From Pseudovirgaria hyperparasitica (taxonomy: Eukaryota): DNA of 64,000 bases. The stretch lies in assembly GCA_010093815.1 (NCBI GenBank), contig ML996570.1; one strand, 5' to 3'. Position 1 is the stretch's first letter; each line of letters begins with the position of its first letter. The position numbers and the translations under genes are program-made. Positions 13,109-31,842 of the stretch are shown here, in pieces. The notes under the pieces are model-generated. The model made no database searches and was not told where the DNA came from. It worked only from the letters and a program-made list of their open reading frames with translations.

Positions 13109-14231
13109 CTATCGCCAGAGTCCATATGGGCCTGTTGTAAACTTCCAGAGCTTAATGGTCCCGTCTTCGCTACCAGTTGCGTATAGTTTTCCGTCAGGAG
13201 AGAATCCGACAGACCACACAGGACCGTGATGGCCTTTGCCAGTTTCTAGTAACTTGTCAGTATTCCATATCGCAAAACTTCTGCGCATCATTACAACTCA
13301 CCGAGCTCTTTTTCTTCGTCAAAATCCCAGATACGCACCCACGTGTCTCCAGCGCCACCAGTAATGAACTTGCGCTGTCCGCTATGGAGCGCAACACTGG
13401 CAACATCTTGTGGCATTTTGACGCTCTTGATGAGCTGTGCAGGCTGTGCACCGTCGAAAAAGTATGCCGTTTTACCTGATGCTACGCTCAGAACTCCTGG
13501 GCCGCTATTGCCAGCGTCTGATGTAGGGTTATCCAACTCGCAGGTACCAACAACACCGTCAACCTGATATTCTCCGATTGTAGACCGACTGCGCAAGTCC
13601 CACCACCGGATTTTTTTGTCTTCGCAGGCCGTGATCAAGATATTAGGGTCGTTGCCCCAGACGATCGACTTGATAGTACCACCATGCACACCTAAGCCAA
13701 TTTCGTAGCTCGGAGTGGACGCAGCAGAAGACAATTCGTTGGCCGTGACGGGCGAAGAGGATGCGCTACGCGACAGATCAAAGATGCGCAACTTTTTCTC
13801 AACGCCCCCTGTCGCGAGGATTTGTGGTCGCGGCTGATTCGGAAAGGCCACTGCACGAACAACGTGGTTATGCTGCAGTGTATGAAGTGCCTCCCCGGTG
13901 CGCGTATCCCACACTCTTGCAGAAAAGTCAGCAGAGCCAGTCGCAGCAAGTGATGCGTCTGAGGACAGGCGTGCTTGCCACACGGCGCCCTTGTGGCCGA
14001 TGAAGGTGCCAATCCAGTCTCCAGTCATGCCATCCCTGAGCATAGGATTATTGTCCTTGCAAGCAGATATGATGTAGTACTGGTCATCATCGGTGACCGA
14101 AGAGAAGCTGAGATGCGGGACTGGGCGAGAGTGGCCGTGGCAGGTAAGAGGCACGAATTTGGTGCTTTCTGGTTGGTGTTAGTGTTGAGGAAAGCCACAG
14201 AGTAGGACAAGCTGGACTGACCGCTCGCCAT
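13109..14231 (-). CDS. WD40 protein, STRAP/UNRIP-like
   Basis: [12 protein letters not shown]...[26 protein letters not shown] and [30 protein letters not shown]. Introns 14169-14221 and 13246-13301. Confidence 0.92.
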
Positions 14232-17106
14232 ATTGCAATCGTAGACTAATTTGGTGGGGCAGGATTGTATGCGGAGCGAGATAGTCGTGCGCGTAGTATC
14301 CACTACTTCAATGCCAGGTACGTTGAACGAGCGTCTTTGGACCTCCTAAATGTGTCTAGGCACGTTTTAACATCGACTTAGCCTGTCAAAATGCTCTGTT
14401 CCCGAGTATATGTGCTAGTATGCGCTGTTGACAAGAGTGAAGAAAGTAGCTGTGGAGCAAGTCGTCTAAATTGAGCAATGAAATTCGTGAGTAGAGTTCG
14501 TAACGTCGTTAAAGTCGTAAGCGGAGCTGAGAATCATGGAAGAGGGCGGAGAGAAGGAGGCGAAGAATGTGGGTGTGATCTCCTTGCGCACAATACAAAG
14601 AGAGTGGAAAGACATTCAGAAGTCATGCTCCGGCGTTTCAACTTGTCCCGGCGCCAGCCGGAGAGGAAGTGCACGGCCCACCCAACTAGTCCGCCAAGCC
14701 GGACCCCTTTTTTAGAGAATCGCACCCATTCTCAAGGCATGTTTCCTGAACCGCGCATCGTTCTCTTGGCTTCCAGATATCATATAATGCATCTACATTG
14801 ATTATATGTACTATCATTTTCGAAGAGGAGCCCAAACCATATACGGACCAATAGGGACTATATGATATAGCCCCATTAGATCATGCGCTGTGTGCAACTA
14901 CACAAATCCGGCTGGCTATCATGCATGTGAGCTCCCTCGATGTCTGGCAGTGCTCGAAAAAATTTTGAGCATTTCGTCCTGCCCTCCCAGACTGTAATAG
15001 CCAGTTATCGTCCCCTCAGATGATGCAAAGTATTTCGTCTATATGTCAGGTCGCCCAGACACGCGTCTATGCTACAATGCCCCATCCGTGAGCAAAGTCA
15101 CACGCAGTATGTTCATTACAACGTGACCAACCTCCAGATATTATCTGACAATGCGAAGACTGCCTTGTCCAGTCACCATGATCTTTCAACGTGTTGGAGA
15201 CTCGGACAGATTTCTTACCAGAGGATATGAAAGAGTAGCTGCGGATTCAGGAACCCCCCAATACCGATAAGTCATATATATCGTCAAAATCCAAACAATG
15301 TATGGGTTGTGCCCACGATAGTCAATTGTTTTCTCACCGGTACTGCAGTCTATCTGAAAACCGTTCGTGCGTAGAAATGCAATGTAAAGATCATGCAACC
15401 ACTACTGATAGGCTGGAAACGCAAAGGTGCAAAATTAAAGGCTTCACCAGCAATATTTTCTGGTATTTCAGGCTGGAGACGTCTGATCGGTGCGGAGAGA
15501 AATTAGAGCGATATCTGGTGGGTGAGGCGTTGCTTTTGTCTGATCCCAAGACACAACAACACATGATCACTCTCGCACGTGCTCCACTGTGATGAGGGTA
15601 CGACCCATTTCTTATTCTAGGGTGCGCATTGACAAGCACGTATAACGCATCATTCTTTGCTGTTCAGGTGTAGTTGCATACCTAGATACATAATGTCTAG
15701 CACTTATCACCAAGAACTCGCTTTGAAATCTGAACGAAACCAGAACTGTTACGTTCGCTCAATGAGGGTTACAGGAAATGTTCGCAGAGCAAGTTAATCA
15801 GTACGTCACAGCCTTGGATTTGTTCTCGTCCAAGTATACTCTCACGAGCGACAGGACTTGGACCCTGTTGTTCGGGTAAGCAGCTGCAGATGAGCTCACG
15901 TTGTTCGCCTGAAAACAAACTAACGACACTACAGTTGCCCTTGTGCTATGAATCACAGCTCTTCGTGTAGAAATCAGGCCAAGACACAATCGCCTTCAAG
16001 CTGACTGGGAAAATCTTGTCCACTCATTACTGTACGCATTCTACAAGTACAATATCGATCACGATCACCTTGAGACCAAGAAATTTGGAATACAAGGCGT
16101 ACGATACACTAGTACTTGGGTACGAGAACTCGTCCAAAACCGCTGACCGCAGACCCATTACTTACATGAGTATGCCTTTATGGAATATCAGCTCCTTGCA
16201 GAGTAATGTATAGCTCTTACGGATGACGATTAACTGGGCTAGACATGGGGACAGATAATCCGTAAACCTGCAGACCAGGTCAAAAATCTGGCGAGGTGGG
16301 TCTCTCTATACAGGAGCTGACAAGTCTTTACCTGTCTAAGCCCGGCGAAGGCTCGTGCCCCTAAGACATGGATCAGCACCTGTAAATCAACTATGCACTG
16401 CGCATATTAGCAGAATTGTAGCTTTGCGGAGTAGTTTTTCAAGCAAATGTGTCCTATGACCGGGCTGTGTTAACGGGACAGACAGTGGGCGAGATTGAAG
16501 GACAGCTTCTGCGTAGTTGAAGGTATCTTGAATCTCGGTGTCTTGGTTCATTACGCGCCAGTCAGATCTACCATAGTCGGATATGAAGTATATGCGTATA
16601 ATGTATCGATAATATTGGTCATCATAATGAAATTGCAAGTTGGTATAGAAGAATATGTCGTCAATTTGGTCAAAGAAACACAATTTACGGTTCCAGCATC
16701 CCCAAGTAACTTCACATAGTCAGACGCTGGAACGAATGATGAAATCCAACCATGTATGTCTGCCTCAGTTTCGAAATTTCCCAAACGCAAAAACTATGAA
16801 TAGATTTGTAAGACATATACTTCATGAGACAAAATCCGGAAATGATGAACCGACAGGCGATATCATCGCGTATCACGGGGAATGAAACGTAGACTCTGGA
16901 TGTGTGGTTCGTAGGCCGTTCGTATATTCAAACAATCAAAGGAAAATATTTCTGTCTTGACGTTCAGGTAATGCAGCTTTGTCGCTAGAGTGTGGCTTGT
17001 AATTCGAAGTTTTCTGGCGTTGGTCAAATTTTGTTGAGATGCTATGATGCCGCATTTGTCGTCATCATATCTCATCTGCATCAGAAGATTTCCTGTTTCC
17101 CTAGTC

Positions 17107-18867
17107 TTATCTTGCTTCGTCCCCATATTGGGCGTAACCCTCTTCCTCTTCCTGTTCCTCTTCCTCTTCCTTTATTTTCTCTTTTTCTCTACGGCCAGCT
17201 GTTCCTCCTGCAATTATTCGCTCGGAAGGTAACTGGTCATTGCTAACATTCAATAGTGCGTGATTGAATTGCCAACGTAAGCTTGATAGCGAGCCATTAT
17301 CGTCGACCACGCGGCCAAAGTCGTAAACCTTGACATTTGTCTCGACAGTGTATATTTTTTGGAAATTGATACGCGACATTGGATCCAGTTTATTGTCCGC
17401 ATCTTTCACTTGTACGGCTATCGGGTGTCCCATTGGCTCCTCACCTGAGCCGTGAACGGGTATTTCCAAGGGGGTCGGAGCTGGGCAATCATCTCCCGTA
17501 TAGATGATGGCGTGATATTTCTTTACTTCACCCAGTTTTCCAACTCCCTGGCCACTATAGGTTGAGATCGGTCTATAGTATGAATAAGTCCTGTGATCTG
17601 TCCCAGACCGGTAGGGTCACATACAAGCACCAACAACTGCCTTCGTTTACATTTACGACTACGAAGTATCGTATCTTTGCGTAGACTTTCTGGCCATAAA
17701 CTTTCTGACTAACAAGGCTAACGCCTCCCTTACTCGAGTTTCCTTGCAGTTCTGGCCATAGAACTTTAAAGACCTGATGCTCATTAATGTGAAGCTGCGC
17801 AAGTGAGTGTCTGTTTACTTACTCGGCCAACTATGAAGTACTCTGGTTTTCTCCTCTTGAATTCTGCTTCCTTCAGTAAGGTATCGAGAAAGCGCGGTTT
17901 TCACATACGAGAAGCAATTCTCCGATCTTTATTCCCTATAGACCCTCTGGAATCCTTGACAATACGAGGGTGTCCAGCTTCTAGCTCGACAGCCACAGTT
18001 TCTCTGTTCGATATCAAGGGCATCGCCAAAGTATATTGCGCAGTAGCTTGTGGAGCACTATATGCACTGTACTGGGGATCATGTGGGGTTTGGGCCTGTG
18101 CACTGGGATACTGGGTCGGATACGATAGGCCACTTTGTGTATAAGGGTCATGAGGGGCACTTGATGTACGTGATAGCTGATAATTGGGAGTTTGATTCTG
18201 GTTCGATAATGCGTGCTGATATGAGTAGCCAGTGGTATAACTAGACTGAGATGACTGATAGGGATTGTGTGAGTAGGCGTTGCATTCACTCCCTGCTCCT
18301 GCGTGTGTGTGTCCTTCTTGATAATTTGATCCTCCAGGTCCGGGTGCAGGTTGATATGGGGAATACGTATAGATGGAACCACTACTAGGTGCCGGTGCAT
18401 GGTGATAACCATGGTCCTGGTGAGCTATATACCGGTGGAATGTTAGCCACACGACGTATGCTTAAAGGTCGCAAGTGCGACCTCTAGTGAATCTCGACTT
18501 GGCAGACTAACATGCAGAGAGGGATAAGCTTTGGATTGCCTCGTCTAAAGTATTGGCAAAGCCGTAGTTCGCAGAAGCCTGGCTGTTCAGACTTCCTGTT
18601 CTTGTGTGTTGCGGTTGTACGTGAAACGCGAGCGACTCTCGTGGTACAGAGAGGTCTTCGCCGCGACCGGGCCTATATATCTAAGTGTCAGATGAATTAT
18701 AGAACATGAAATCGGATAGCTACGTACACGCTCAAGTGGGTGCTCGCAGTATCTGCGGGTGATTGCCACTCTGACTGATAGATACGGCGCCCATTCATGC
18801 TGATGTACCACTCCTGTTTCTGGGCGTCCAATTTCCAGGGCGATGGCGATGCCATTGCTGGGTCCAT
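17107..18867 (-). CDS. DUF6590-like domain protein (paralog A), 6 exons, with Y/Q/P/S-rich linker and acidic tail
   Basis: Introns 18673-18727, 18425-18511, 17864-17908, 17774-17822 and 17573-17624 give one open frame: MDPAMASPSPWKLDAQKQEWY...FIVGR|VFKVLWPE...KIRYFVVV...CWCL|PISTYSGQGVGK...HAIIYTG...LDPMSRINFQKIYTVETNVKVYDFG. The 5' exons are less certain. Confidence 0.8.
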
Positions 18868-19721
18868 GAAGCCGTCAGGCTGATGACTTACGACTACATG
18901 CTAATGAGACGAGCACTTATAAATTTGGGTCTAAGCAGATTCGAAAGACAAACGCAGAGCCGCATTACCCCCTCCTAATTACGACGGCGCACTAGGAATA
19001 TGCACGCTATCTATATCGCATTGCGAACTCACTCGCCATGTGACGATGCTGAGGGTCTATTCGCCCATGTGAGCGTTCCACACTCACACAGCATATGAAC
19101 CATAGTAATGTGGAACATATAGGGCTCCTATAGGCCGCCAGAAACTTTCGAGGCTTTAGGATACCAAGGCAACGGCACGGTAGCTGGCTGCTGGCACCAC
19201 CCGACTACCCTTGACCTATTCGCGTATGAGTAGCTTGTTCTGGGCCACCTTCAGCCCAGTAAGCGAGGATGAGAAGAGGCGGGATGCTTGTGGATGATTG
19301 TTGGATGGGCGTAAAGGCAAATTAGAGACAGGGAAACAAGAGAGTGTGTGGTGAGGCACGGGAATGTTGCACCTTGTGCAAGTCCGGGCTGAGAGGGCCT
19401 AACCTCATTCGGCTGTAAGCGACGTCTTCGTGCTTTCAACCTGAGACCCGAGGACCAACAGCACGCATGCCCCGGTCACCATCGTTGCATTCCTGGTCGC
19501 GGGAATTTTGCTGCCTTGTTGTCCTCCTACACCAGGTATGAACGTCGGACATTCTGTACTGCACTTGTACCCCGTTCTTGATTCTTGAGACTCCATAGTC
19601 CGCCAGTGCACCAGGCTGATGAGCTATCGAAGCTGGTACATTATAAGAGCTTAGTGTGATGTTCATGAACGATAGCCCCTTTCAATCTTTTAGTACTGGA
19701 TCGCTTCATTTCATTTCATAG

Positions 19722-21101
19722 ATGTCGAGCAACAATGCTGCGTTGAGATCACCGTCACCACCTCTGACTCTCAGCCGGACACCGTCATTATTGCTTCCAA
19801 ATCTTCAAGCACTACCAGTAGACCAGTCGGAATCAGAACTATACCAACATGGCACGCCGCCGCCTCCACCACCACCACCATTATTCTTCCTATCGCCTAA
19901 AGGTAGCGAATCCGTGCAATGGTATCCTGCTCCAGCATATGGAGTCCACCCACCTTCCCATGCCGTCTGGTCGCATAGATCTGGTCCATCCAAATCTGCT
20001 GAGAGTCCCACCGCTGGTAAAATTGCCAAAATCTTAATCCAATGGGACGAGGTCAAACTTCTTCGCGAAGAGGTCCTCAAAGAACGTGTTCGCGAAGGAC
20101 AATATTTAGAGTCGATGGCACGCTTGCGCCGGCATGCACAGGATGCTAGAGCCGATTTGATGAAAATGTTAAATGCAGCAGCAGCTCAGGGCAATTTTGA
20201 GGCCTGTTCAAAGGCATTGAAAGAAGTCTCGGAAAGAGTGATGCGCGCCGAGGAAGCTCTCAATCTGCTAGAACAGGAACGGGCAGAGTTTAGCAAGATC
20301 AATTTTGGACTGCATGATAGGCTATATGAGAAAGACATGGTCTTGCAGAATTATCTGGATTCTATGCATCGCGACCAGTCCTCAGTTCCGGTACCCCACT
20401 CCGACGATTCTACAGCTTTTTCCAGCGAATCCGGATTCGTCATGCCAACTGAGAGCCTTCTTGTCCAGCTTTATGAATGTACCGCAGAATACAAGGTGAT
20501 CAAAGCACGCATCGATCAACTACGCGACGACCACGAGGTCAATCTCGAATTTAGAAGAAGGCATGAGACGGCTGGTCAAATGCTCCAGATCTCAGATGGC
20601 GCGTTCTTCGATGAGTTCTTTACTAAGTACTCTACCTTGCGGAGAGAGCTTCACAGATTATGGAAGAAAATTCGTCGGATTCAAAGTCTGTGTGATCAAA
20701 AAGCATTTGTCTCTTTGGCTGAGAGCGTGAGCGAGTTATCTGCGGCTACGTCCTCTGTGCCATCAGATGATGGAGAAATAGTACTCGCGGACGACCTTAT
20801 AGATGAGAAAAGGCAGGTCGAGGAACAATATCCTGGGCTCTTTCTAAAACCCGGAGACAAAATACTGTCAAATTTTCGGGGCAAAACGGACCGAATCAAT
20901 CGATGGTTGATGCATGTTTTCCGGTTGTCCAGTATCGAAATATGGAGACATCGTTCGAGAACAAGCTTACCAGACCTGCCCTTAGAGACTGATGAAGCAT
21001 GGTCTTCGAAGGTTTGGAGTACATGGTCCATTGCAAACTCTAGCGCGGAATCTATCGCCTCCGTGACAACGCAGATGTCGGAAAGTATTGTAAGTATCTA
21101 A
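19722..21101 (+). CDS. Intronless coiled-coil hypothetical protein (459 aa)
   Basis: Long uninterrupted ORF with a polyproline N-terminus, two heptad-rich segments and a C-terminal KTDRINRWLMHVF motif. Confidence 0.8.
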   Translation: MSSNNAALRSPSPPLTLSRTPSLLLPNLQALPVDQSESELYQHGTPPPPPPPPLFFLSPKGSESVQWYPAPAYGVHPPSHAVWSHRSGPSKSAESPTAGKIAKILIQWDEVKLLREEVLKERVREGQYLESMARLRRHAQDARADLMKMLNAAAAQGNFEACSKALKEVSERVMRAEEALNLLEQERAEFSKINFGLHDRLYEKDMVLQNYLDSMHRDQSSVPVPHSDDSTAFSSESGFVMPTESLLVQLYECTAEYKVIKARIDQLRDDHEVNLEFRRRHETAGQMLQISDGAFFDEFFTKYSTLRRELHRLWKKIRRIQSLCDQKAFVSLAESVSELSAATSSVPSDDGEIVLADDLIDEKRQVEEQYPGLFLKPGDKILSNFRGKTDRINRWLMHVFRLSSIEIWRHRSRTSLPDLPLETDEAWSSKVWSTWSIANSSAESIASVTTQMSESIVSI

Positions 21102-24100
21102 AGATGGAGTCAATCTTGAGCTGCCTTTTCTTAGACAAGACCGCATGCGAGTATCAGTTCCCTTCGCATTCCTTTACTTTGGGTCATCTTCTATTTGGCC
21201 AAGTCATGTATGAGTGGCATTCCTACTTTGTTCGAGCGAGTATACCAGTCTTTCTATTAGTATATCTTTTACTGCATGCTTATTTCTGGTGTTCAAACAA
21301 TGTGTGGTCGGTGGAACTGTATTATATAGACGAATTGTAACGAAAGGTCATAAGGCATAACCGATTCCGATCCATTCAACCACATATAAACAGCTAATTA
21401 TCGTCACCTTCCATACGCTCAGTTTCTTCGAAGTATAATTAATCACTCATAACGACAACGACGATGGCGGTCCATTCGATGGTCTGATAGGCTACCATAA
21501 GTCAACAAGTAAACTGAACTCTCGAAGTTGATTGGTCTGCTGATCAAGAAAGCAACAAAGACCGTGGGGGTCCATTTCTTACTGAGCGGTCTCCGCAAAT
21601 CCAATGATGAAGCCGTAGCGAAGTTGTGCCAAGTAATACGACCAGTCACAAGGCTATACAGTCATTCGCAATCTTGAGTCAGAGAGGGTATCCTGGCGCA
21701 GCCCTCCTATCAGATCCTGTGACTAGAAAGCCGGAGTGTAATGGAGGTGTGGGGGTCTGAACGAGCATATGCTAGGTGACCACTGACCAGCTTTTGTATG
21801 CCTTTACTTGTGCAAGGACTACGCGGTTCTCCAGACATCGGTGACCCCTCAAGCGCCTTACTATGCTGCCCGAGGATAAAGCAAAACACGAATCCTCCGG
21901 ATGATGATCTCCTTGGAGTCAAGCCATTGCCATCGGGCAGCATCGAGGGAAATGGGTCGAATTATGCACACGTACGGCACAGGCAGGGCGGCCTGCCATG
22001 TCTGCTAACCTTATCTGTCGCAGTGGTCGTTCTACATATTGATAGGCGCGATCCATGACCTTTTTCGCTATGCCTGCAACACCAATTCCGCATAGTCAAA
22101 GGTATACAATAACCGCGGGCAACGCAGGAGAATGCAGAAGCTCTACACATTTCCACTCAGGTGTTGCGATATGCTTTAGTGGCGCCATGTCAGCGAGCGG
22201 ATATAAAGCGCGGATGCGGTAAAGTCGGCAGAAAGCAGCAGGCTATACGTGTACAAATGCCTACGGCTTAGACGCGCCGGTGTGCAATATGTAGGGATGC
22301 TGCAAGGCATTGAACTGTGCACGGCATAATGGCATGATGTGAGGCGTCCTGTATGCGTATATTGATGGTTCTATGGGCTATGGGAAAGTGTATGAAATGG
22401 GAACCTGATGCCTGTTGTCGACAAGGATTTGATGACCTTGGTCCTTGGCTTTCTTCACGCTACTGCACCACCGGCACCGGCGGGTAGGAACGGCCCTATT
22501 TCCAACGACGGGAAGCGGGAAAATATTCTGCGAGTCAGCTACCATGCCGGGATTAAGAGAAGCTAGCTACACAGTCACCTAGTCTGACTATTCGACTGGA
22601 GGACTAATACTGGTAGCAAGAGTAGATCTACCAGACTCCGATTTCCTAGTATGCAAGCAATCAAATCATAGCCCAAAGTGCCTTTGATACAACCTACTTC
22701 CTTTCTATCCAATCTTGACATTCATTCAGGGGACCAACTGATCCCACCATGCTTGAAACGTGGGCCCACTCATCTTCGATGGACGGCAGCGCAAGTGGCT
22801 TTCGGAGAAGCCTGGGGACGTGCGGCATCTCCCGTGAAGAAACTATTATAGAAGTGTCTGCATTCTTGTATGGTACGATCAAAATGGCACGATCAGCATG
22901 GTCCGCCGTCGGTAGTGGCGGATAGGGATGGTGAACCATGGTTCTGGCATGATAGGCTGGCGCTAAAGGCAACCTCACTGCATATTTGCATGCAAGGCTG
23001 GTCTTTTAAGTGATGTCCGCAATGTCTTGAGAGAGCATAATGCGAATTGAGATGGTCATTTGATCGACTCTACTGAGCACAACGAACTGAATAATGATCC
23101 TCATGGTAGACTCGCCATCATGTCATTAACGCTATTCATGTCCTGGCCTGGATAGCACGGAATGACACTTTCATGCAACCTTGCCATATGTAGTTGTGTT
23201 ATTGAACTGGCACGTAATGTAGAATGGGTCAGTCCGCGGTAAACACATTACACTTCAATTCCAGCAATAGTTCCGAGGCGTGTATGGAGGAACACCTAGC
23301 ATATCAGATCGAGGAAGGCCTAGCATGACTGCCTCCCCCCTTTATTTGTTATCATACTATGTCCATTCGCAATTGCATATTTGTAGTATCTATCATAGGC
23401 CATTCTTGTATAAATAGCCCTACCATAGGTTGCAAATTCACGCGGTCGATCGTGCGTAAATTTATGGTGAGCTAGGATTTTTCTATAGTCGCATGCGGGT
23501 TGACAGTTGAATGTACGCAATGCTCATATAAGTTCCCTTGATTCCTAAACCAACTGAGCGGAGACTTGTGAGAGCACTCGTCAATAGTAATTCGAATATG
23601 AACACTCGGCGGTACAGATTTCTATACTTCATGGACATATGGCTAACCAGGTTCGAGCCTCTCCCTTCAACAAAATATGCAGCAACACAGTCTACCTCAA
23701 CTGGCGCCACATGCGATTAGCTTTCGGGAGGTCATGGTATGTTGTTGACAGAAATGATCCACTCTGCATGCTCTTGTCAGCCGAGACTGCGTCGACTACG
23801 TCCCTTCACGTTCTGGAATCCAGTTCTTGGTGTACACATCATTCAGATCTCTTCCAGTGTTTCTCAGTGACTTCTGCGTTATAATTTCGTAGTGGATAGC
23901 GGCGCATAACAGCAGAATCGTTGGAAAATGGCGAGCTGAACACGGCGTCATAATCAAGGCATGTTGTCTCTCGTATGGTCTCTCTGGCGGCGCAGATACC
24001 GAGTCTTGAGCACTACACGGTGTAGCAAGGGGCAAGAGACTTGACAAAGTCTTGGGAATCGGGAGGCTAGCCTAAAAGAAGTCAGTTGTATGTAGAATCG

Positions 24101-26241
24101 GTCAACCCAAACTATGGGAATTGATTATAAGAGATGTGGCAGCACTGTAACTACCAAGGAATATGTCGAACGGTAAAAGGAACTCTCTAGCGGATGGTCT
24201 CTTTGTCTGTACATTACAATTGCTGACTGGCCTGACCGAGCTTTATGCAGCATAATTTCACATCTTGCACATTGTGGTGGGCCCCTCAAACCCAATCAAC
24301 ATCGACATAATTAACATCAGCCAATACGCATCCTCCATTCAATACAGCTCTAAACACACATATACCGTAAGCAGAGAGCGAGGATAGCCCAGTCTCGATG
24401 GCGATCATGATGTCGTTGAGCATCGTCACGGGGCTATGCATGCACATGCATCCTTCTATGAGGCACTGAGTACCACTATATCCGTCATAGTAGCCACTGG
24501 ACTCACACTCAGGCTTTTCCCTTTACCAACAGGCTTATGTTAGGGGCTCGGCACGCCCGTATTCAATTTTGATTCCCTATTTCGATGTTCTATTGACCCA
24601 TGGCTCACCAGGGCTAAAGCGCACTTGTTGCAGTATCTACATAATGGGATTCTGCAATATGGATGTCAGAACCGACCCAGTTCTAAGAGAGACGTTTCTG
24701 TTCGTGACGTGGCAGGGCGAGCAAAGGATATCGGGCGGGCCGGTCCTTATGCGACCCCTCTAGCACAAGTATCGCTGGTTCACGCTGTGACTTTCATGCA
24801 TGCACAAAGGGGCTGTCATGTCAATGTTTGTTTCACCCCACTTGTTAAATGATTAGGTGCATCGAGTCAAAGGTGAAATCGTTGATTCTCGCAAATCCTG
24901 ATGTTGTAAGCGTCTAGCAGCTTCGAACTTGTCGAAGAAGGCTTGAAGCCATAGCATTCCTGAAATTGATTGATGCAATAGCTACCAACATGCAGAGCGA
25001 TATGCCCGAAAGCTAGCACGGTTATAGCAGCGTCCTTAGGCCAACTGAAACAAAGCCAATGTGGCGCTCTCGCGTGTCTAGATTTGGCATTCTATCTGGC
25101 TAAGTCGACGTGCTTTCTTTTGCGTAAACCTGCCGTATGCTACTCGATGCAATGCTATAGTTCCCTACGTGTATGCGCCAAGCACCATGCCACTAATGCC
25201 AGTCGCACTGGATATGGACTTCGGTTTGAATCCCGAAGCGTATGCCATAAACGTAACTCGTCACATTCGCCCGGCATACGGTGTCTAGAGATAGCCGTGT
25301 CCGATTCTGCACCTCAATAGATGATCGCAACTCTCGAGCCCATATCCCCCTTGTGAGCTATATCTTGTTCGCCAGTGTTCTGGTGTGGATTCTGTAGCTC
25401 TGACTGCTCGGCAAACCCCTGATATGTAACTGTTTTCACTATTCTCTCAGCGATTGGTAATTGAACTGGATATTGAAGGCCCTAAAAGTGGCGGTTATAT
25501 TTCGAAATCTGAACGTCCTATCAGGCAACAGGCAGTGCTATTGTGAGCTGTGGAGATGCTTTGTAGAGGAGCTATTTCTGATCCTATGAGCCTTGGGGCT
25601 TTTGCCAAAAGGGACTTTGTATAGCTAGACCATCAAGCAGAGACTGTAGATAGGAGGCGATACTTGCTGTACGAGGCCGAAATTGCCAATGCCGTTCCTC
25701 GTATATACAGTGGGCGTATTGGGCATTGTTCGAAACAATTTGCATGCTAAACTAGTGATAGGACAGTCTTGGGTATGTCTTACTTTCGGTAGGTCCAGAT
25801 GACTTGCAGATAGCGTAACATCGTGGAATGATTTTACAAAAGAAGGGCGGTGGACCAGAAGTCAGATTGGAGTTTTCACAGACTACACCTGCAAGGTAAC
25901 ACAACGCATGGCTCAGGGACTCCATTTGATGTCTATCATCTGTCAGAAATACCAATGCAGGCAGTTCTCATAGAGCCTTTCGATGGCATTCCAATCACCT
26001 AGCTGCAGCAAGATGGGGGCATGGATACGATGCGGGCGAGCCGAGCTCAGCCATTCAGGCGGGTTTTCAGCGCTTCAACAGTGAAAACGCGCCAGTGCAA
26101 AAACCTTGCCATAGTGTACTTACCGCTGCAGACTTAAGGCGCCTACTGTTCCATTATTCATGAGACGTTGCTTACTTATAAGGTGCGAATATCCAGGCCT
26201 TTACCTCACCTGTATGATGTAGAGAGCCTTACCAACAAACG

Positions 26242-27369
26242 ATGTCTGATCCAAGCGCTACTAATCCGTATGCTACTGACTGGGTCTGGTCTGATGAAGC
26301 GCAATGCTATTGGAGAAATGAATACATTAATGGTCAGTTGTTGCATCAGAACTGGGATTCTGTTGGCTGCTTTCATTGGTTCCGTGAATGTTTGCTGATG
26401 TTAGGGGTTCCTTAGACCAGTGGCAGGTTGTTTACCATTCGTAAGTTTGGCTACACTCATCATCTCACATTCTAATGCTGAAACACGATTCATGACAGTT
26501 CTTCCTCTGCCACTGCCAGCACCGCCCAACCATCATCGATGTCCACGCCAAGTTATACGTCCTACTCCTACGGTAGAACCCCTGGTGCTGGCGCTCAGCC
26601 TGGAACTGTCCCTACACAAACCACGACTGGAACGGAAACATTGGACCCAAGTTTGTGGAAGACTTTCGCATCTGTTATCAACAGAAGCTGAACTGTGGCA
26701 CTAGGCTACCAATTGAGAACGGATGCTAGGTCATTTTACATACGCGGACGAGTACGTTCGTGACCCGTTGGAGGCCTGAGCAGAGAGATGGGTACAAAGA
26801 ATACGAGACTGATATACTCGTAGATGTTTGCAACGCTTCACATTGAAGCTTACGGAGGTACAGCTACTGGCGCTGACGCCGAGAATGTCTTCACCGTAAA
26901 GTACGGAGAGAAAGCATACTGTCAGATTCGACGATTTGTCGTGGTAAAGGACGACCGCGGCTACTGCCTGGCGTGGTGAGTGAAAGCCACACCGAAATAT
27001 CGGACCACACTGATGATCAAAAGTCCAGTTGCAACGTACCGCGGTCGAGGAACGACGAAACGTGGTGTGAACCCCAAACAACACGCTGTCATATTCACAA
27101 CCAACAGTGGGCCAAATTGGATGCAAGGCGAGACAGAAATGGACAAAGACCCTATTGGAGTTGATGCGGCTGATCCGTCTATAAGACTTGGACCAGCCTC
27201 TCGTATAAACTTTGGCCAAGTGAGCAAGAGTACGCCTTCGTTATCTAGGGCTGATCCCCTCTAGGTCCACTGTATACAACATAATGTCAAAGTCAAAGAC
27301 CTCGGAGTGGTTCGTTTGGAAGACTTACCGAAGCTAGTTGCATACTGGCGAGCGGAAATGCAAAACTGA
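26242..27369 (+). CDS. DUF6590-like domain protein (paralog B), 7 exons; mostly missed by the ORF track
   Basis: Introns 26333-26415, 26441-26498, 26651-26704, 26752-26823, 26976-27023 and 27220-27264 give MSDPSATNPYATDWVWSDEAQCYW...FYIRGR|MFATLHIE...QIRRFVVVKDDRGYCLAC|PVATYRGRGTTKRG...HAVIFT...LGPASRINFGQ|VHCIQHNVKVKDLG...MQN*. Confidence 0.85.
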
Positions 27370-28201
27370 ACAGCCAATCGGCGTAGGAGCTACTACTTTC
27401 CGTGTTGCCGGGAAGTCTGTCGCGGGATGAAGCATACGCCGAGACTATCATCAAATTTTCTTGGCCTGTTGACCATTTTACAAGCATCTGCTGCAGGCAG
27501 CAGGCTTTACATGACGTTCCATGGAACAGCAATATGGCGAAGTAATTGGAAATGCAGCGGTCGGCTCAGGCTGTCTTTATTGTACGGATGCGATGCAGCA
27601 TGTTCATAAGTCAAAATGTTTTGGCTTGATTCTATCATCGATTTCCAGATCCAAGTTGGAAAATGTGTCGCTCAGGAGATCGCCAGTATCGTCTTAGCAG
27701 TGGTTGGTGTCCGAGGGCCGTTTCAAAGATGTGGACAAGAAGTGCATTCAGCCATTTACGCTCCCGCTCCGCCGAGGAAGGGAAGCCTCTTTGGCATATT
27801 CATGAAATGTGTGTGTGAGAGGACTGACATATAGACTGAAGCCACACTCACTATCCATGCGGACTAGACCGCGTACTTCTCTCAAAGCCGCGATAGCCGC
27901 TGTATTTGAACAGTGATACACGTTTTCTGACTTACTCCACAGTGCAAACGCGATTATAATCATACCGATACTAACTACTACGATTACCAATTCGTCTATG
28001 TAAGCATCGTAACAGTCTTAAGAATCGAAAGTATGGGTGGGCCTGGTAACCAATTGCTAGTAATTAAAGACAGCATAGGCGTTACCTTTGTCCATAAAAG
28101 GCTAGCGCCATCGATGGGAGATCATCGGCAGAAAGAAAAAGTTCTTAGGATTCGAGTTTAGATTTAAGGTCTTTCACAAGACAGTACTGACTATATGCGC
28201 C

Positions 28202-30096
28202 ATGTCAAAGCGCAATTTGAAGCGCAAGCTGAACGAAAGCAATGTTCCAGAAGAGGCTGTGTCCTCTGGTTCTAAGAACCCCGCGAACCAGTCCTTCTCT
28301 GACTTCGGTTTGGATGCGCGAATCTTGAAAGGGATTCAGGGCCAGCATCCGGCATGGTCAAAGCCAACTCAGGTTCAAAGTACAGTGATACCACTTGCTC
28401 TTGAGGGAAAGAATATTCTGGGTTGGTTGGATTTCTACGTACGCCAATTGTTGCTAATGATTTCGTAGCACGTTCCGGTACCGGCACAGGGAAAACCGCA
28501 GCATACGTTCTTCCTCTCATGCAAGCAATCTTGAAACGCAAGACCGCCTCTCGTGCAACGAAATGTACCTCAGCAGTAATCCTAGTACCATCATTTGAGC
28601 TTGCCTCACAGGTCACGAAAGTCATTAGCACATTAGCGGCAGGCTGTGGCGCCGACATACGAGTGGAGAACATTGGTAGGAAAGAGGTGGACAAAGTGCA
28701 AAGAGTGCGACTGGCAGATTTGCCTGACATAGTAGTGGCGACACCCAGCAGAATTATTTCGAGTCTGGAAAGTTCTGCACTTTCCCTTTCCGACGTCAGT
28801 CATGTAGTCATTGATGAGACCGACACGATCATGGCATATGAGCAAGGAGAATATCTTAAAGGGATTTCCACGAATCTTCCGCAAGGCGTTCAAACAATCC
28901 TTATGAGTGCTACGTTGGAAACAGGTGTTGATCAGGTCAGGGATATGTTCTGTCAGAACCCTACTGTGGTAGAACTCGACAACTCCGAAGAAAGCGCCGA
29001 CCGCGTCTTCCAATACGTTGCAAAATGTGCAGAGGATGAGAAGTTTCTCATTGCCTATGTTCTATTCAAACTCAATCTAGTGAAGGGCAAGTGTATTGTG
29101 TTTGTCGCAGACATCGATCGCTGCTACAGGCTCAAATTATTTCTCGAGCAATTTCAGATCAAGAGCTGTATCCTGAATTCCGAACTTCCCGTCAACTCTA
29201 GGCTTCATGTCGTGGACGAGTTCAACAAGGGAATTTACAACATCATTTTGGCGACGGACGAGCATGATATTGTAGGCGATGAGACTAAGAAGCAACCGAA
29301 GACGGAGGAAAGGCCTGATGGCGAGGGTGAGACGCATATCGGGGAGCCGATATCTGGGGAGAAGGAATCTGATCATCCAAAGAAGAAGACAAAGACCACG
29401 AAAAGGGACAAAGAGTACGGAGTCGCTCGGGGTATAGATTTCAAGGACGTCGGATGGGTTATAAACTTTGATCTACCAATTACGTCAAAGTCCTATACTC
29501 ACAGAATAGGGCGGACTGCGCGTGCAGGCAAGGCTGGCACTGCACTTTCATTCGCCATCCCGAAAGATCAATATCGGAAACACAAATCTACGTGGATACC
29601 ATCCACCGAACATGACGAGGAAGTTTTGGACAAGATCACACGACAGCAGACCAAGAAAGGGTTCGAAATTAAGCCCTTCAATTTGAACATGTCTCAATTA
29701 GACCCGTTTCGGTACCGTTTTCAAAGTGCTCTACGGGCCGTTACCAGGACGGCCATTCGCGAAGCACGAACACGAGAGCTCAAGCAAGAGCTACTAAAAA
29801 GCGAGAAATTGAAGAGACATTTCGAGGAGAATCCTGAGGACATGCAACACCTTCGGCACGATAGTGACCTGAAAGCAGCGAGAGTGCAACCACACCTGAA
29901 ACACGTACCCGATTACCTGCTCCCTCCAGCTGCCAGAAAAGCTCTCACTTCAGGCGACATTGGCTTTGTGGGATTCAACAAGGATGAGAAGCGTCTCCGA
30001 AGCTCGAACATCGGCAACAAGAGGTTCGGCCGCAGATCAGGCTTCAAGAAGAAAGCAGACCCACTGAAATCGTTTGGCGGAAAAGGTAGAAGGTAG
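28202..30096 (+). CDS. DBP9: ATP-dependent RNA helicase Dbp9/DDX56
   Basis: Q motif, GTGTGKT, DETD, SAT, ARGIDF and HRIGRTAR, plus the Dbp9-specific YRLKLFLEQF and HFEENP.D..HLRHD. Intron 28422-28468. Confidence 0.95.
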
Positions 30097-31842
30097 ATAG
30101 TTCTGACGCTGGGGTGATTCTACTATTTCATAATTACTCAAGCTTTTCGCTGGACGTTGCGCTAAATGCTTGTCGATGATTTTGCAGAAAACGGTATCCT
30201 CAATCGTGCAATTTGCAATGCGATTACAAAATGATGGCTGTCTATCTATTTTTCTTTGGTCTAAATATACTGAACCCGTCTCTTGACTCCAAGTCGCTAA
30301 AGCATTCCATCTTCTACTCGTGATCACATGCACGTCCATATTCACGTCTGACTGACTCCCGAATCATTGTCCCCCAGCACATCCTGAAGAGCAACCCATC
30401 TCCGCTCTCACCTGGGTCATCTGATAAGTCCCATTGTCTTCCACGGAGTCTCAGTGATTCGACTTGATAAACCCTACGTATGATTGACCATGCACACTGC
30501 TTGCATCTTCGCTTCCATCCAGTCATTTTCCCTGCAATAATACACATGTTCCCAAGAGCTATTATCAACAATTCGATACCCTCACGTATTGATCTCCCTT
30601 GCGCTACCAGACGCACCCTGCGTATCCACGCCATTGACCAGGCATGCGTGGCGCGGCGACAGCCCCTGTCAGTCGGTCGACAGCCAGTAGCAAGAAAATT
30701 TCCCAGGCCCAGGACAGTGCGATGTAAAGTATCTGCGTCCACAGGATAGCATTCGTGCTGACCTGACCAGGACTGCGCTTCGACACAATGATACAATCAG
30801 ATGCCATATCGAGCCATGCAGAAGCAATTGGGTGTCACGAATCGGTGGATGGGAGGCGCCTGTAGCAGGCTCGAAGAAGAGAGATGCGAGGGCCGCTGGT
30901 ATTGCAGGATGGCGTTTCTAAGGCGTGCGTGATATCTTCTGTTGCGGACTGTTTCAGCTAGGCTGAGGCGTACCCCTTCGCATGCCTGTATAGTTCCTAG
31001 GTGTGAGATAGGGCGCGACGTGGTTTTGATCTGGCTGGACATCTGAGGCTGTGCCGCTGACGATATGCTTTTGAACAGGTATTTGGGTCTGGCGAGTATG
31101 GAGTATGTATAGCACTATCTGTGTGTGGTTCAGACGGGTCAGGCACTCATGGCGCCTCGTACTGGTGGATGGCGCTGAGTGTGTACGTTACTCGGGGGCT
31201 CGTTTGTCGGGCGTAGAGACTTTGGCCTTGATAATCGGACACGTCATGGGAGTAGTCCTGTCTCGATTTTGGATTCGATGTGCTTGATTGGCAATGTTTT
31301 GGCGGGTGATCGGATGAACGAAAGGTGTGTTTGTCGATTGGTGCTGAAGCGGCGAGGAATAGGAAAGGGCTGTTGGATACGTCGGGCATCGTCATTGTAG
31401 CGGTGACAAGGACCCTGAGCTGTTCTGATGGTGCAGTCAGATTCGATATAGGTGTATTGATGCAGGTTGACATAGTCTTACCCAGGGGCCTTGACTTTTG
31501 AGATCCGTGGGTGCAGCAGATACACGGATCACCAAGGGCAGATAAGACGGGTGTTCGTACACTATCAGTTGATCATCACCGGTCTTGCAACTGTGTTAAG
31601 CTTCAATCAATGTGATTACACAATAGTAGAAATACTGATCTTGGGTACTTCAAAGTGTTACGGCCGCCTAAATGGCTAGTCGTCGGCGCAAGTTTACATC
31701 TTAGATCTTATTCTAGAGGGTTTGACCGTAGGTATATATCATTGTTTGGTCATCTAGACAGTCTATGGCTCTATGACTTGGATTTACCCTACGCGTGTGA
31801 TGATCATGAGATCGATCGTATGTATGGAGTGGCAGCACTATA

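Follow-up and report, generated by a model that had tools for sequence, protein, structure and literature searches.

We describe a locus in the Dothideomycete fungus Pseudovirgaria hyperparasitica where two genes for DUF6590 (PF20233) proteins, A and C, flank a gene for a coiled-coil protein, B. The locus lies in a 64-kb stretch of DNA, the whole of which was analysed and is called the window below; all positions are counted within it. The recurring conserved unit is the head-to-head pair A+B and not the set of three genes, and for the DUF6590 domain the fold of the toxins MazF, Kid and CcdB is predicted with high confidence. The best explanation we can offer, to which we give an even chance, is a conserved A+B module in which a protein of predicted MazF fold is joined by a coiled-coil partner, with C as a separate gene. 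The features on which the argument turns are as follows.

17107-18867, minus strand: gene A, DUF6590 protein of 490 amino acids, six exons placed from run contigs (18867-18728, 18672-18512, 18424-17909, 17863-17823, 17773-17625 and 17572-17107, stop included)
18766-18843, minus strand: W/Y-rich N-terminal mini-motif of gene A, residues 9-34 (SPWKLD...YQSEW), from BLASTP against family member P0016
17909-18672, minus strand: low-complexity linker of gene A rich in S, A, Q, P and Y, exons 2-3 with intron 18425-18511 within, from composition
17299-17863, minus strand: DUF6590 domain of gene A with a predicted MazF/CcdB-like fold, two introns inside, from Pfam and AlphaFold2
17134-17190, minus strand: acidic C-terminal tail of gene A, REKEKIKEEEEEQEEEEGY, with 10 D/E in a 15-residue window
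18868-19721: 854 bp that separate the start codons of the divergent genes A and B, presumed from geometry to be a shared promoter region
19722-21101, plus strand: gene B, coiled-coil protein, open frame of 459 amino acids, identical to EJ05DRAFT_537314 and a member by the B-like profile
20007-20699, plus strand: helical core of gene B, hairpin 1 (residues 96-220) and hairpin 2 (residues 243-326), from AlphaFold2
20892-20909, plus strand: RINRWL motif of gene B, residues 391-396, in a short helix of the disordered tail
26242-27369, plus strand: gene C, solitary DUF6590 protein of 255 amino acids, hand-built model backed by run contigs, seven exons (26242-26332, 26416-26440, 26499-26650, 26705-26751, 26824-26975, 27024-27219 and 27265-27369)

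A recurring head-to-head pair

Pfam matched DUF6590 on four of seven scanned open reading frame (ORF) pieces, two of them at 17.1-17.8 kb of the minus strand and two at 26.8-27.3 kb of the plus strand (A exon 6, E 3.7e-25; A exon 5, 1.9e-10; C exon 5, 1e-07; C exon 6, 6.3e-20). The gathering score of the family (27 bits) is exceeded by A exon 6 (89.1 bits), C exon 6 (72.2 bits) and P0035, the annotated gene A protein (152.8 bits, E 9.5e-45 over residues 46-193). An earlier interpretation made without database searches, here called the sequence-only reading, had given both intron-split genes one and the same C-terminal domain and had placed A on the minus strand and B and C on the plus strand, B between A and C; domain and layout are both as it described. 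A tblastn search with 34 proteins (33 family members and gene B) found exactly two DUF6590 loci in the 64 kb.

Gene B is hard to place by direct comparison. It has no significant Pfam match, a search of 5.8 billion proteins returned itself alone among 8000 scored candidates, and a pattern scan of metagenome contigs gave 0 confirmed of 166 pattern matches, as would be expected if A, B and C were unrelated genes that happen to be neighbours. Against chance stands the outcome of a profile search in 79 metagenome loci, fetched by means of a DUF6590 alignment and the source of both the B-like family and the pairing counts below. In tblastn gene B matched one of these loci, L017 (E 8.9e-06), through a 602-residue ORF that has polyproline, a coiled coil and a DRVNRWML motif as in gene B and that then recovered further members. 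The resulting five-seed B-like profile matches 21 ORFs among 3645 at E up to 0.01, new members at 3.5e-25 to 1.7e-10, and reversed-sequence decoys at E 0.048 or worse. Of the 14 aligned ORFs, those of full length have some 450-650 residues; 12 of the 13 sequences that reach the R(V/I)xxW(L/M) motif retain its Trp (reading of alignment A2), and no Pfam family was found in any of 13 scanned members.

The AlphaFold2 model of gene B, from a 14-sequence alignment, has hairpin helices with a predicted local distance difference test score (pLDDT) >90, a further helix at residues 388-409 around RINRWL, and disorder elsewhere, including the proline-rich head. No Protein Data Bank (PDB) entry matches this model at E up to 0.001; its structural neighbours in the Atlas are generic coiled coils at a template modelling score (TM) <0.6, and the placement of gene B by the Atlas near unnamed Ascomycota clusters (score 0.92) is a lead only. 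With its proline-rich head, two hairpins, R(V/I)xxW(L/M) helix and head-to-head position next to a DUF6590 gene, gene B has all the features of the B-like sequences and by profile similarity belongs to a fast-evolving, unnamed coiled-coil family, defined here.

DUF6590 occurs at 104 places in the metagenome loci, 78 of them unique at 95% nucleotide identity; those 30 whose upstream sequence extends for 3 kb or more are the informative ones. At 13 of the 30, a B-like ORF begins 1.0-2.8 kb upstream of the domain and reads the other way. Three more pairs have shorter flanks, and all 16 pairs are head to head. The sequence-only reading had proposed that DUF6590 co-occurs with RINRWL-type coiled-coil genes, and in these metagenome contigs it does. 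With 16 head-to-head pairs at unique places and reversed-sequence decoys confined to E 0.017 or worse, chance neighbourhood is refuted for A and B and possible for C; for the trio as a whole we regard it as exceedingly improbable. Pairs also accumulate locally: L017 holds three, including the order D(-) B(+) B(-) D(+), where D is a DUF6590 gene and B a B-like gene, and the 20.5 kb of L008 (1-20525; near-copy L010) contain four B-like ORFs along with six DUF6590 places.

The divergences of the two partners correlate (Mantel r 0.39, reached by 1-2 of 5000 permutations with all 15 pairs and by 3 of 5000 without a near-duplicate), a correlation to which kinship of the source organisms contributes. 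The near-identical pair of L017 and L013 shows 97% identity in the domain as against 86% in the partner.

In a different arrangement, a B-like piece lies directly upstream of DUF6590 on the same strand in L008/L010 (2295-3116, minus), with a like case in L005 (696-1493, plus). These may be fusions.

Gene C stands apart from the pair. The sequence-only reading had taken A, B and C for one three-gene module, an old functional unit with outward-pointing paralogs bracketing the coiled-coil gene. The layout of the window is as such a cassette would have it, DUF6590 genes do cluster (more than one copy in 12 of 25 metagenome loci of at least 6 kb), and by the order seen in L017 the window could be two back-to-back pairs that have lost one B. 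A and C share three introns, one of phase 1 ahead of F/Y, one of phase 0 following GR and one of phase 2 ahead of P[IV]xTY; positions, judged by identical columns of the profile alignment, and phases, from the contig-supported exons for A and from exon arithmetic for C, agree with those proposed earlier. As close paralogs, however, the two genes fail: they are 34-36% identical over the domain, C ranks 119th for A and A 73rd for C among 176 family matches, dozens of proteins from other fungi are closer to either of them, and no DNA repeat connects them. By sequence comparison they are old, distant family members and not products of a local duplication.

Nor was a relic of a partner for C found in 21100-26300, either with profiles B1 and B2 on 185 frame segments (best E 2.2) or by tblastn of 18 B-like ORFs (best E 0.05, matches not colinear); neither a partner of C nor a remnant of one was detected. 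Since 13 of 30 informative places are paired and C, at 34-36% identity to A, has no detectable partner, we take the unit to be a pair. A D-B-D triplet built around a single B recurs in none of the loci, and we consider the three-gene cassette improbable.

Predicted fold of the DUF6590 domain

DUF6590 is a large and divergent family: 1365 representatives of 50%-identity clusters are found at E up to 0.001, and the query alone is recovered at E up to 1e-30. Named members are all from Pezizomycotina, and the Pfam entry carries no function. The family was matched by Pfam in all 75 aligned relatives of P0035. Residues H122, E138 and R169 are present in 75 of 75, R87 in 67 of 69 and T106 in 70 of 75; A and C keep all of them. 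An acidic stretch follows the domain in 38 of the 71 members with a C-terminal tail and precedes it in 0 of 54. Tandem DUF6590 repeats occur in P0036 and P0038. A Pycnora praestabilis protein (P0177) is a kinase domain fused to DUF6590, and in L017 a 574-residue ORF (16523-18247, minus), protein-kinase-like by motif reading, adjoins one DUF6590/B-like pair; together these hint at a link of the family to kinase signalling.

The AlphaFold2 model of P0035, built with the 75 aligned relatives, has a mean pLDDT of 78.6, with block means >90 over nearly all of residues 41-210 and lower values in the surface loop 61-80. Foldseek against the PDB gives two matches at E up to 0.001, both Mycobacterium tuberculosis MazF-mt1 (best 5hjz_A, E 6.5e-04, TM by target ~0.6), and among the Foldseek matches listed all are MazF/PemK-type or type III endoribonuclease toxins. 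VIA-align, which is independent of Foldseek, was run against 48,161 representative chains. Its ranks 1-15 are all MazF, Kid, CcdB, CptN, ToxN or AbiQ; the best match has Z 9.7 and a root mean square deviation (rmsd) of 2.7 with 102 of 111 residues aligned, 12 matches (ranks 1-12) reach Z of at least 7.5 (9.7-7.5), and the first unrelated fold comes at Z 4.5. In the Atlas, too, the structural neighbours of its own P0035 model include PemK/MazF clusters (TM by row 0.66 over 114 aligned residues). The predicted model thus has the SH3-like barrel with a C-terminal helix that defines the MazF/PemK/Kid/CcdB superfamily, and from these models a MazF/Kid/CcdB toxin fold is predicted for it with high confidence.

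Gene models, flanks and spacer

Evidence for splicing comes from contigs of two public runs, X1 and X2, on positions 14000-30500; the kind of run is unrecorded, and both are of one sample in one study. The contigs skip at least 15 segments, 15 of 15 with GT..AG or CT..AC ends, including introns of both flanking genes. Because they skip introns, we read the runs as complementary DNA. They cover A, B, C and both flanking genes, and they join across all 11 introns modelled in A (five) and C (six), so that these genes, as the sequence-only reading had modelled them, are real and spliced. We read A and C as expressed, intron-rich fungal genes.

The joined exons of gene A form a single open frame of 1473 nt, and all five introns, CT..AC on the plus strand, are spanned by run contigs. 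The upstream introns 18673-18727 and 18425-18511 (87 nt) splice the ORF with the W-rich motif in frame to the linker. The annotated protein EJ05DRAFT_326877, which is P0035 (256 residues), starts at an internal Met, has the same three domain introns and equals the last 256 residues of the 490-residue model. The public annotation of gene A is 234 N-terminal residues and two introns short, and the longer model of motif, linker and domain put forward earlier, its frame backed by contigs, is the better one. The motif itself recurs in the family: the upstream ORF matches the N-terminus of P0016 (BLASTP E 1e-07, 14 of 29 residues identical), and similar N-termini are visible in P0008, P0010 and P0029. 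Its two Trp have, by visual impression, the spacing of a WW domain, alongside the absence of any Pfam family, WW included, at E up to 0.1 in the N-terminal ORFs of A and C. The linker ORF of A likewise has no Pfam match.

The hand-built model of gene C reads the same, in a side-by-side comparison, as the annotated 255-residue EJ05DRAFT_475176. Its six introns are of 45-83 nt, and each is joined across in contigs of both runs. The protein retains the family-invariant residues and is without an acidic tail. When left unspliced, intron 1 (26333-26415) is open for ~27 codons and extends the W-rich motif (NGQLLHQNW); this read-through resembles the unspliced motif of gene A (NGRRIYQSEW), and the run contigs carry the spliced form.

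The protein of gene B is 100% identical to EJ05DRAFT_537314 at NCBI. The gene had been called intronless. Its annotation has one 3' intron at ~21091-21140 (GTAAGT...TTAG), with an end near 21260 and 497 amino acids. Contig pieces 19350-22156 (X1) and 19479-21780 (X2) traverse this segment unspliced, and no joint there is among the at least 15 listed. The gene may end at 459 rather than 497 residues, or both forms may exist.

Beyond the three genes, the locus contains the following.

13294-14178, minus strand: WD40 gene, flank
28.1-30.1 kb, plus strand: DEAD-box helicase gene, flank
22604-24204: contig-covered unit in the 5-kb spacer between B and C, pieces 22604-24071 (X1) and 22636-24204 (X2)

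The flanking genes had been named STRAP and DBP9; a WD40 gene and a DEAD-box helicase gene would fit these identities. The surrounding DNA had also been called gene-poor; at least two further contig-covered units are present in it. One is the ~1.6-kb unit at 22604-24204, covered by both runs without a joint and with a longest ATG ORF of 81 amino acids, which could be a long non-coding RNA. Another is a small plus-strand transcript at 14760-15506, between the WD40 gene and gene A, with GT..AG introns at 15107-15158 and 15300-15348; its longest ORF in the joined form is 49 amino acids. The 66 ORFs of the spacer have no Pfam match at E up to 0.001, neither an Rfam family nor a tRNA was found in its 5 kb, and it has no signature of repeat-induced point mutation (TpA/ApT 0.76; (CpA+TpG)/(ApC+GpT) 1.36).

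Effector pair or ordinary cellular module

The preferred explanation can be spelled out as follows. A and B stand head to head at the 854-bp region, from which both would be transcribed, and A consists of the W-rich N-terminal motif, a disordered linker of S, Q, P and Y, the DUF6590 domain and the acidic tail. C is a distant partnerless DUF6590 gene that lies 5 kb beyond B by happenstance, such genes being often clustered. The MazF-fold domain would be an RNA-binding or RNA-cleaving effector whose activity is kept in check either by the protein's own acidic tail or by the coiled-coil protein expressed with it, or by the two together; the conserved C-terminal helix would be the means by which the partner acts. 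In a eukaryote the pair might then work as toxin and antidote, or as effector and regulator, with a role in stress, in defence or in genetic conflict. A part for the tail is suggested by analogy, since MazE blocks MazF by an acidic tail; that of DUF6590 proteins is a possible in-cis inhibitor. Because the domain has the predicted fold of MazF/CcdB toxins, the toxin-antidote idea of the sequence-only reading gains a structural basis, and it remains plausible and inferred. We put this effector/inhibitor mechanism forward tentatively. Its boldest form, in which DUF6590 proteins would be the first eukaryotic MazF/CcdB-type toxins with a rapidly co-evolving head-to-head coiled-coil antidote, and their arrays toxin-antidote or non-self-recognition loci, seems to us doubtful.

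Several observations weigh against the toxin-like interpretation and against a fixed pairing. By sequence profile DUF6590 does not join the MazF/PemK/Kid/CcdB superfamily. None of the 75 family members is matched by PF02452 (PemK_toxin) at E up to 10; among the 16 PDB sequences that a family profile matches at E up to 10 there is no MazF, these matches being acidic-tail noise only; and hhalign is not significant, with a probability of 1.5% against Escherichia coli MazF and of 3.5% (E 0.012) against 77 MazF relatives. This weak alignment is colinear over 100 columns. It sets R87, in the K-I-R-x-F-V-V strand, on R29 of E. coli MazF and the P-I-x-T-Y turn on the P-C-T-T turn, T106 meeting T53, one residue past T52. 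In an excerpt of PMC10893535, Arg25 and Thr48 of Bacillus subtilis MazF are reported as essential for catalysis. The equation of R87 and T106 with the catalytic Arg and Thr is a lead, given a non-significant alignment with the Thr off by one. A shared fold shows no function in any case: CcdB has a MazF-type fold yet is not a nuclease. To our knowledge the B-like partner, a coiled coil of 450-650 residues, resembles no MazE or CcdA antitoxin. At 17 of the 30 informative DUF6590 places, gene C included, no partner was detected by a method that intron-split or very divergent partners would escape, so that the partner is either not obligatory or often missed. The loci were chosen through DUF6590, and the counts do not cover how often B-like genes are solitary. 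The heads of DUF6590 proteins vary, being a W-rich motif, SH3 (5 of 33 long relatives) or, in P0177, a protein kinase; with such SH3 and kinase fusions a signalling adaptor would fit too.

A rival explanation is an ordinary cellular module, in which the MazF-like barrel would do no more than bind RNA or peptides in an adaptor with SH3, W-motif or kinase heads, the coiled-coil gene would supply a co-regulated scaffold, and neither toxicity nor conflict would play a part. The run contigs that cover A, B, C and both flanking genes are in keeping with it, as are the SH3 heads and the one kinase fusion, the partnerless majority of informative places and the lack of a MazF signal at the sequence level. 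What speaks against it is the very large size and divergence of the family, the local arrays such as that in L008, and a partner that diverges faster than the domain (86% against 97%), features that we would take as typical of conflict genes rather than of housekeeping. An ordinary module is a real possibility, though short of an even chance.

Among described systems, MazF, PemK, Kid and CcdB are similar in the predicted fold, across almost the entire toxin (Z 9.7-7.8, rmsd 2.3-3.4, 89-108 residues aligned). Unlike these toxins, DUF6590 is eukaryotic, intron-split and ~60 residues larger by loop insertions, and it is embedded in proteins of 250-1000 residues with disordered linkers and other domains. 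Type II toxin-antitoxin loci carry a small antitoxin gene in the operon of the toxin; here the recurrent neighbour is instead a divergently transcribed coiled-coil gene for about 450-650 residues. Toxins of the ToxN/AbiQ/CptN type (type III), which are neutralised by repeat RNAs, give weaker fold matches (CptN Z 7.5, ToxN and AbiQ 5.3-4.9), and unlike in type III systems no tandem repeat RNA gene was seen at the window locus. With Spok and wtf, poison and antidote come from one and the same gene, and the folds are unrelated to DUF6590. The present case differs from them in having two genes. What is shared, going by PMC12693581 (Spok) and PMC5478263 (wtf), is the general idea of a chromosomal killer and protector in fungi.

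A text search of the literature, supplementary files left out, found no paper naming DUF6590 or PF20233 and, among the papers listed, no report of an endogenous MazF/CcdB-fold gene in fungi. In the portions that the search brought up, the Ascomycota passage of PMC2446400 deals with Doc/Fic and not with MazF, PMC11156358 is on RNA editing and PMC12693581 is on Spok. The fold assignment and the partner gene for DUF6590 are additions of this analysis.

A family of >1000 clusters at 50% identity thereby gains a structural assignment, a conserved genomic partner unnamed in databases and, from a sequenced fungus, a concrete pair of genes, apparently spliced in the run contigs. The hypothesis for this domain of unknown function can be put directly to the test, through toxicity, its relief by the partner, and RNA cleavage. 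Should the toxin reading fail, the pairing would still define a two-protein module, and the annotation of gene A would still be corrected. Should it be true, bacterial-type toxin-antidote logic would reach filamentous fungi, with a bearing on allorecognition, genome conflict and possibly defence, and the arrays of DUF6590 pairs in Pezizomycotina would be to fungi what type II toxin-antitoxin loci are to bacteria.

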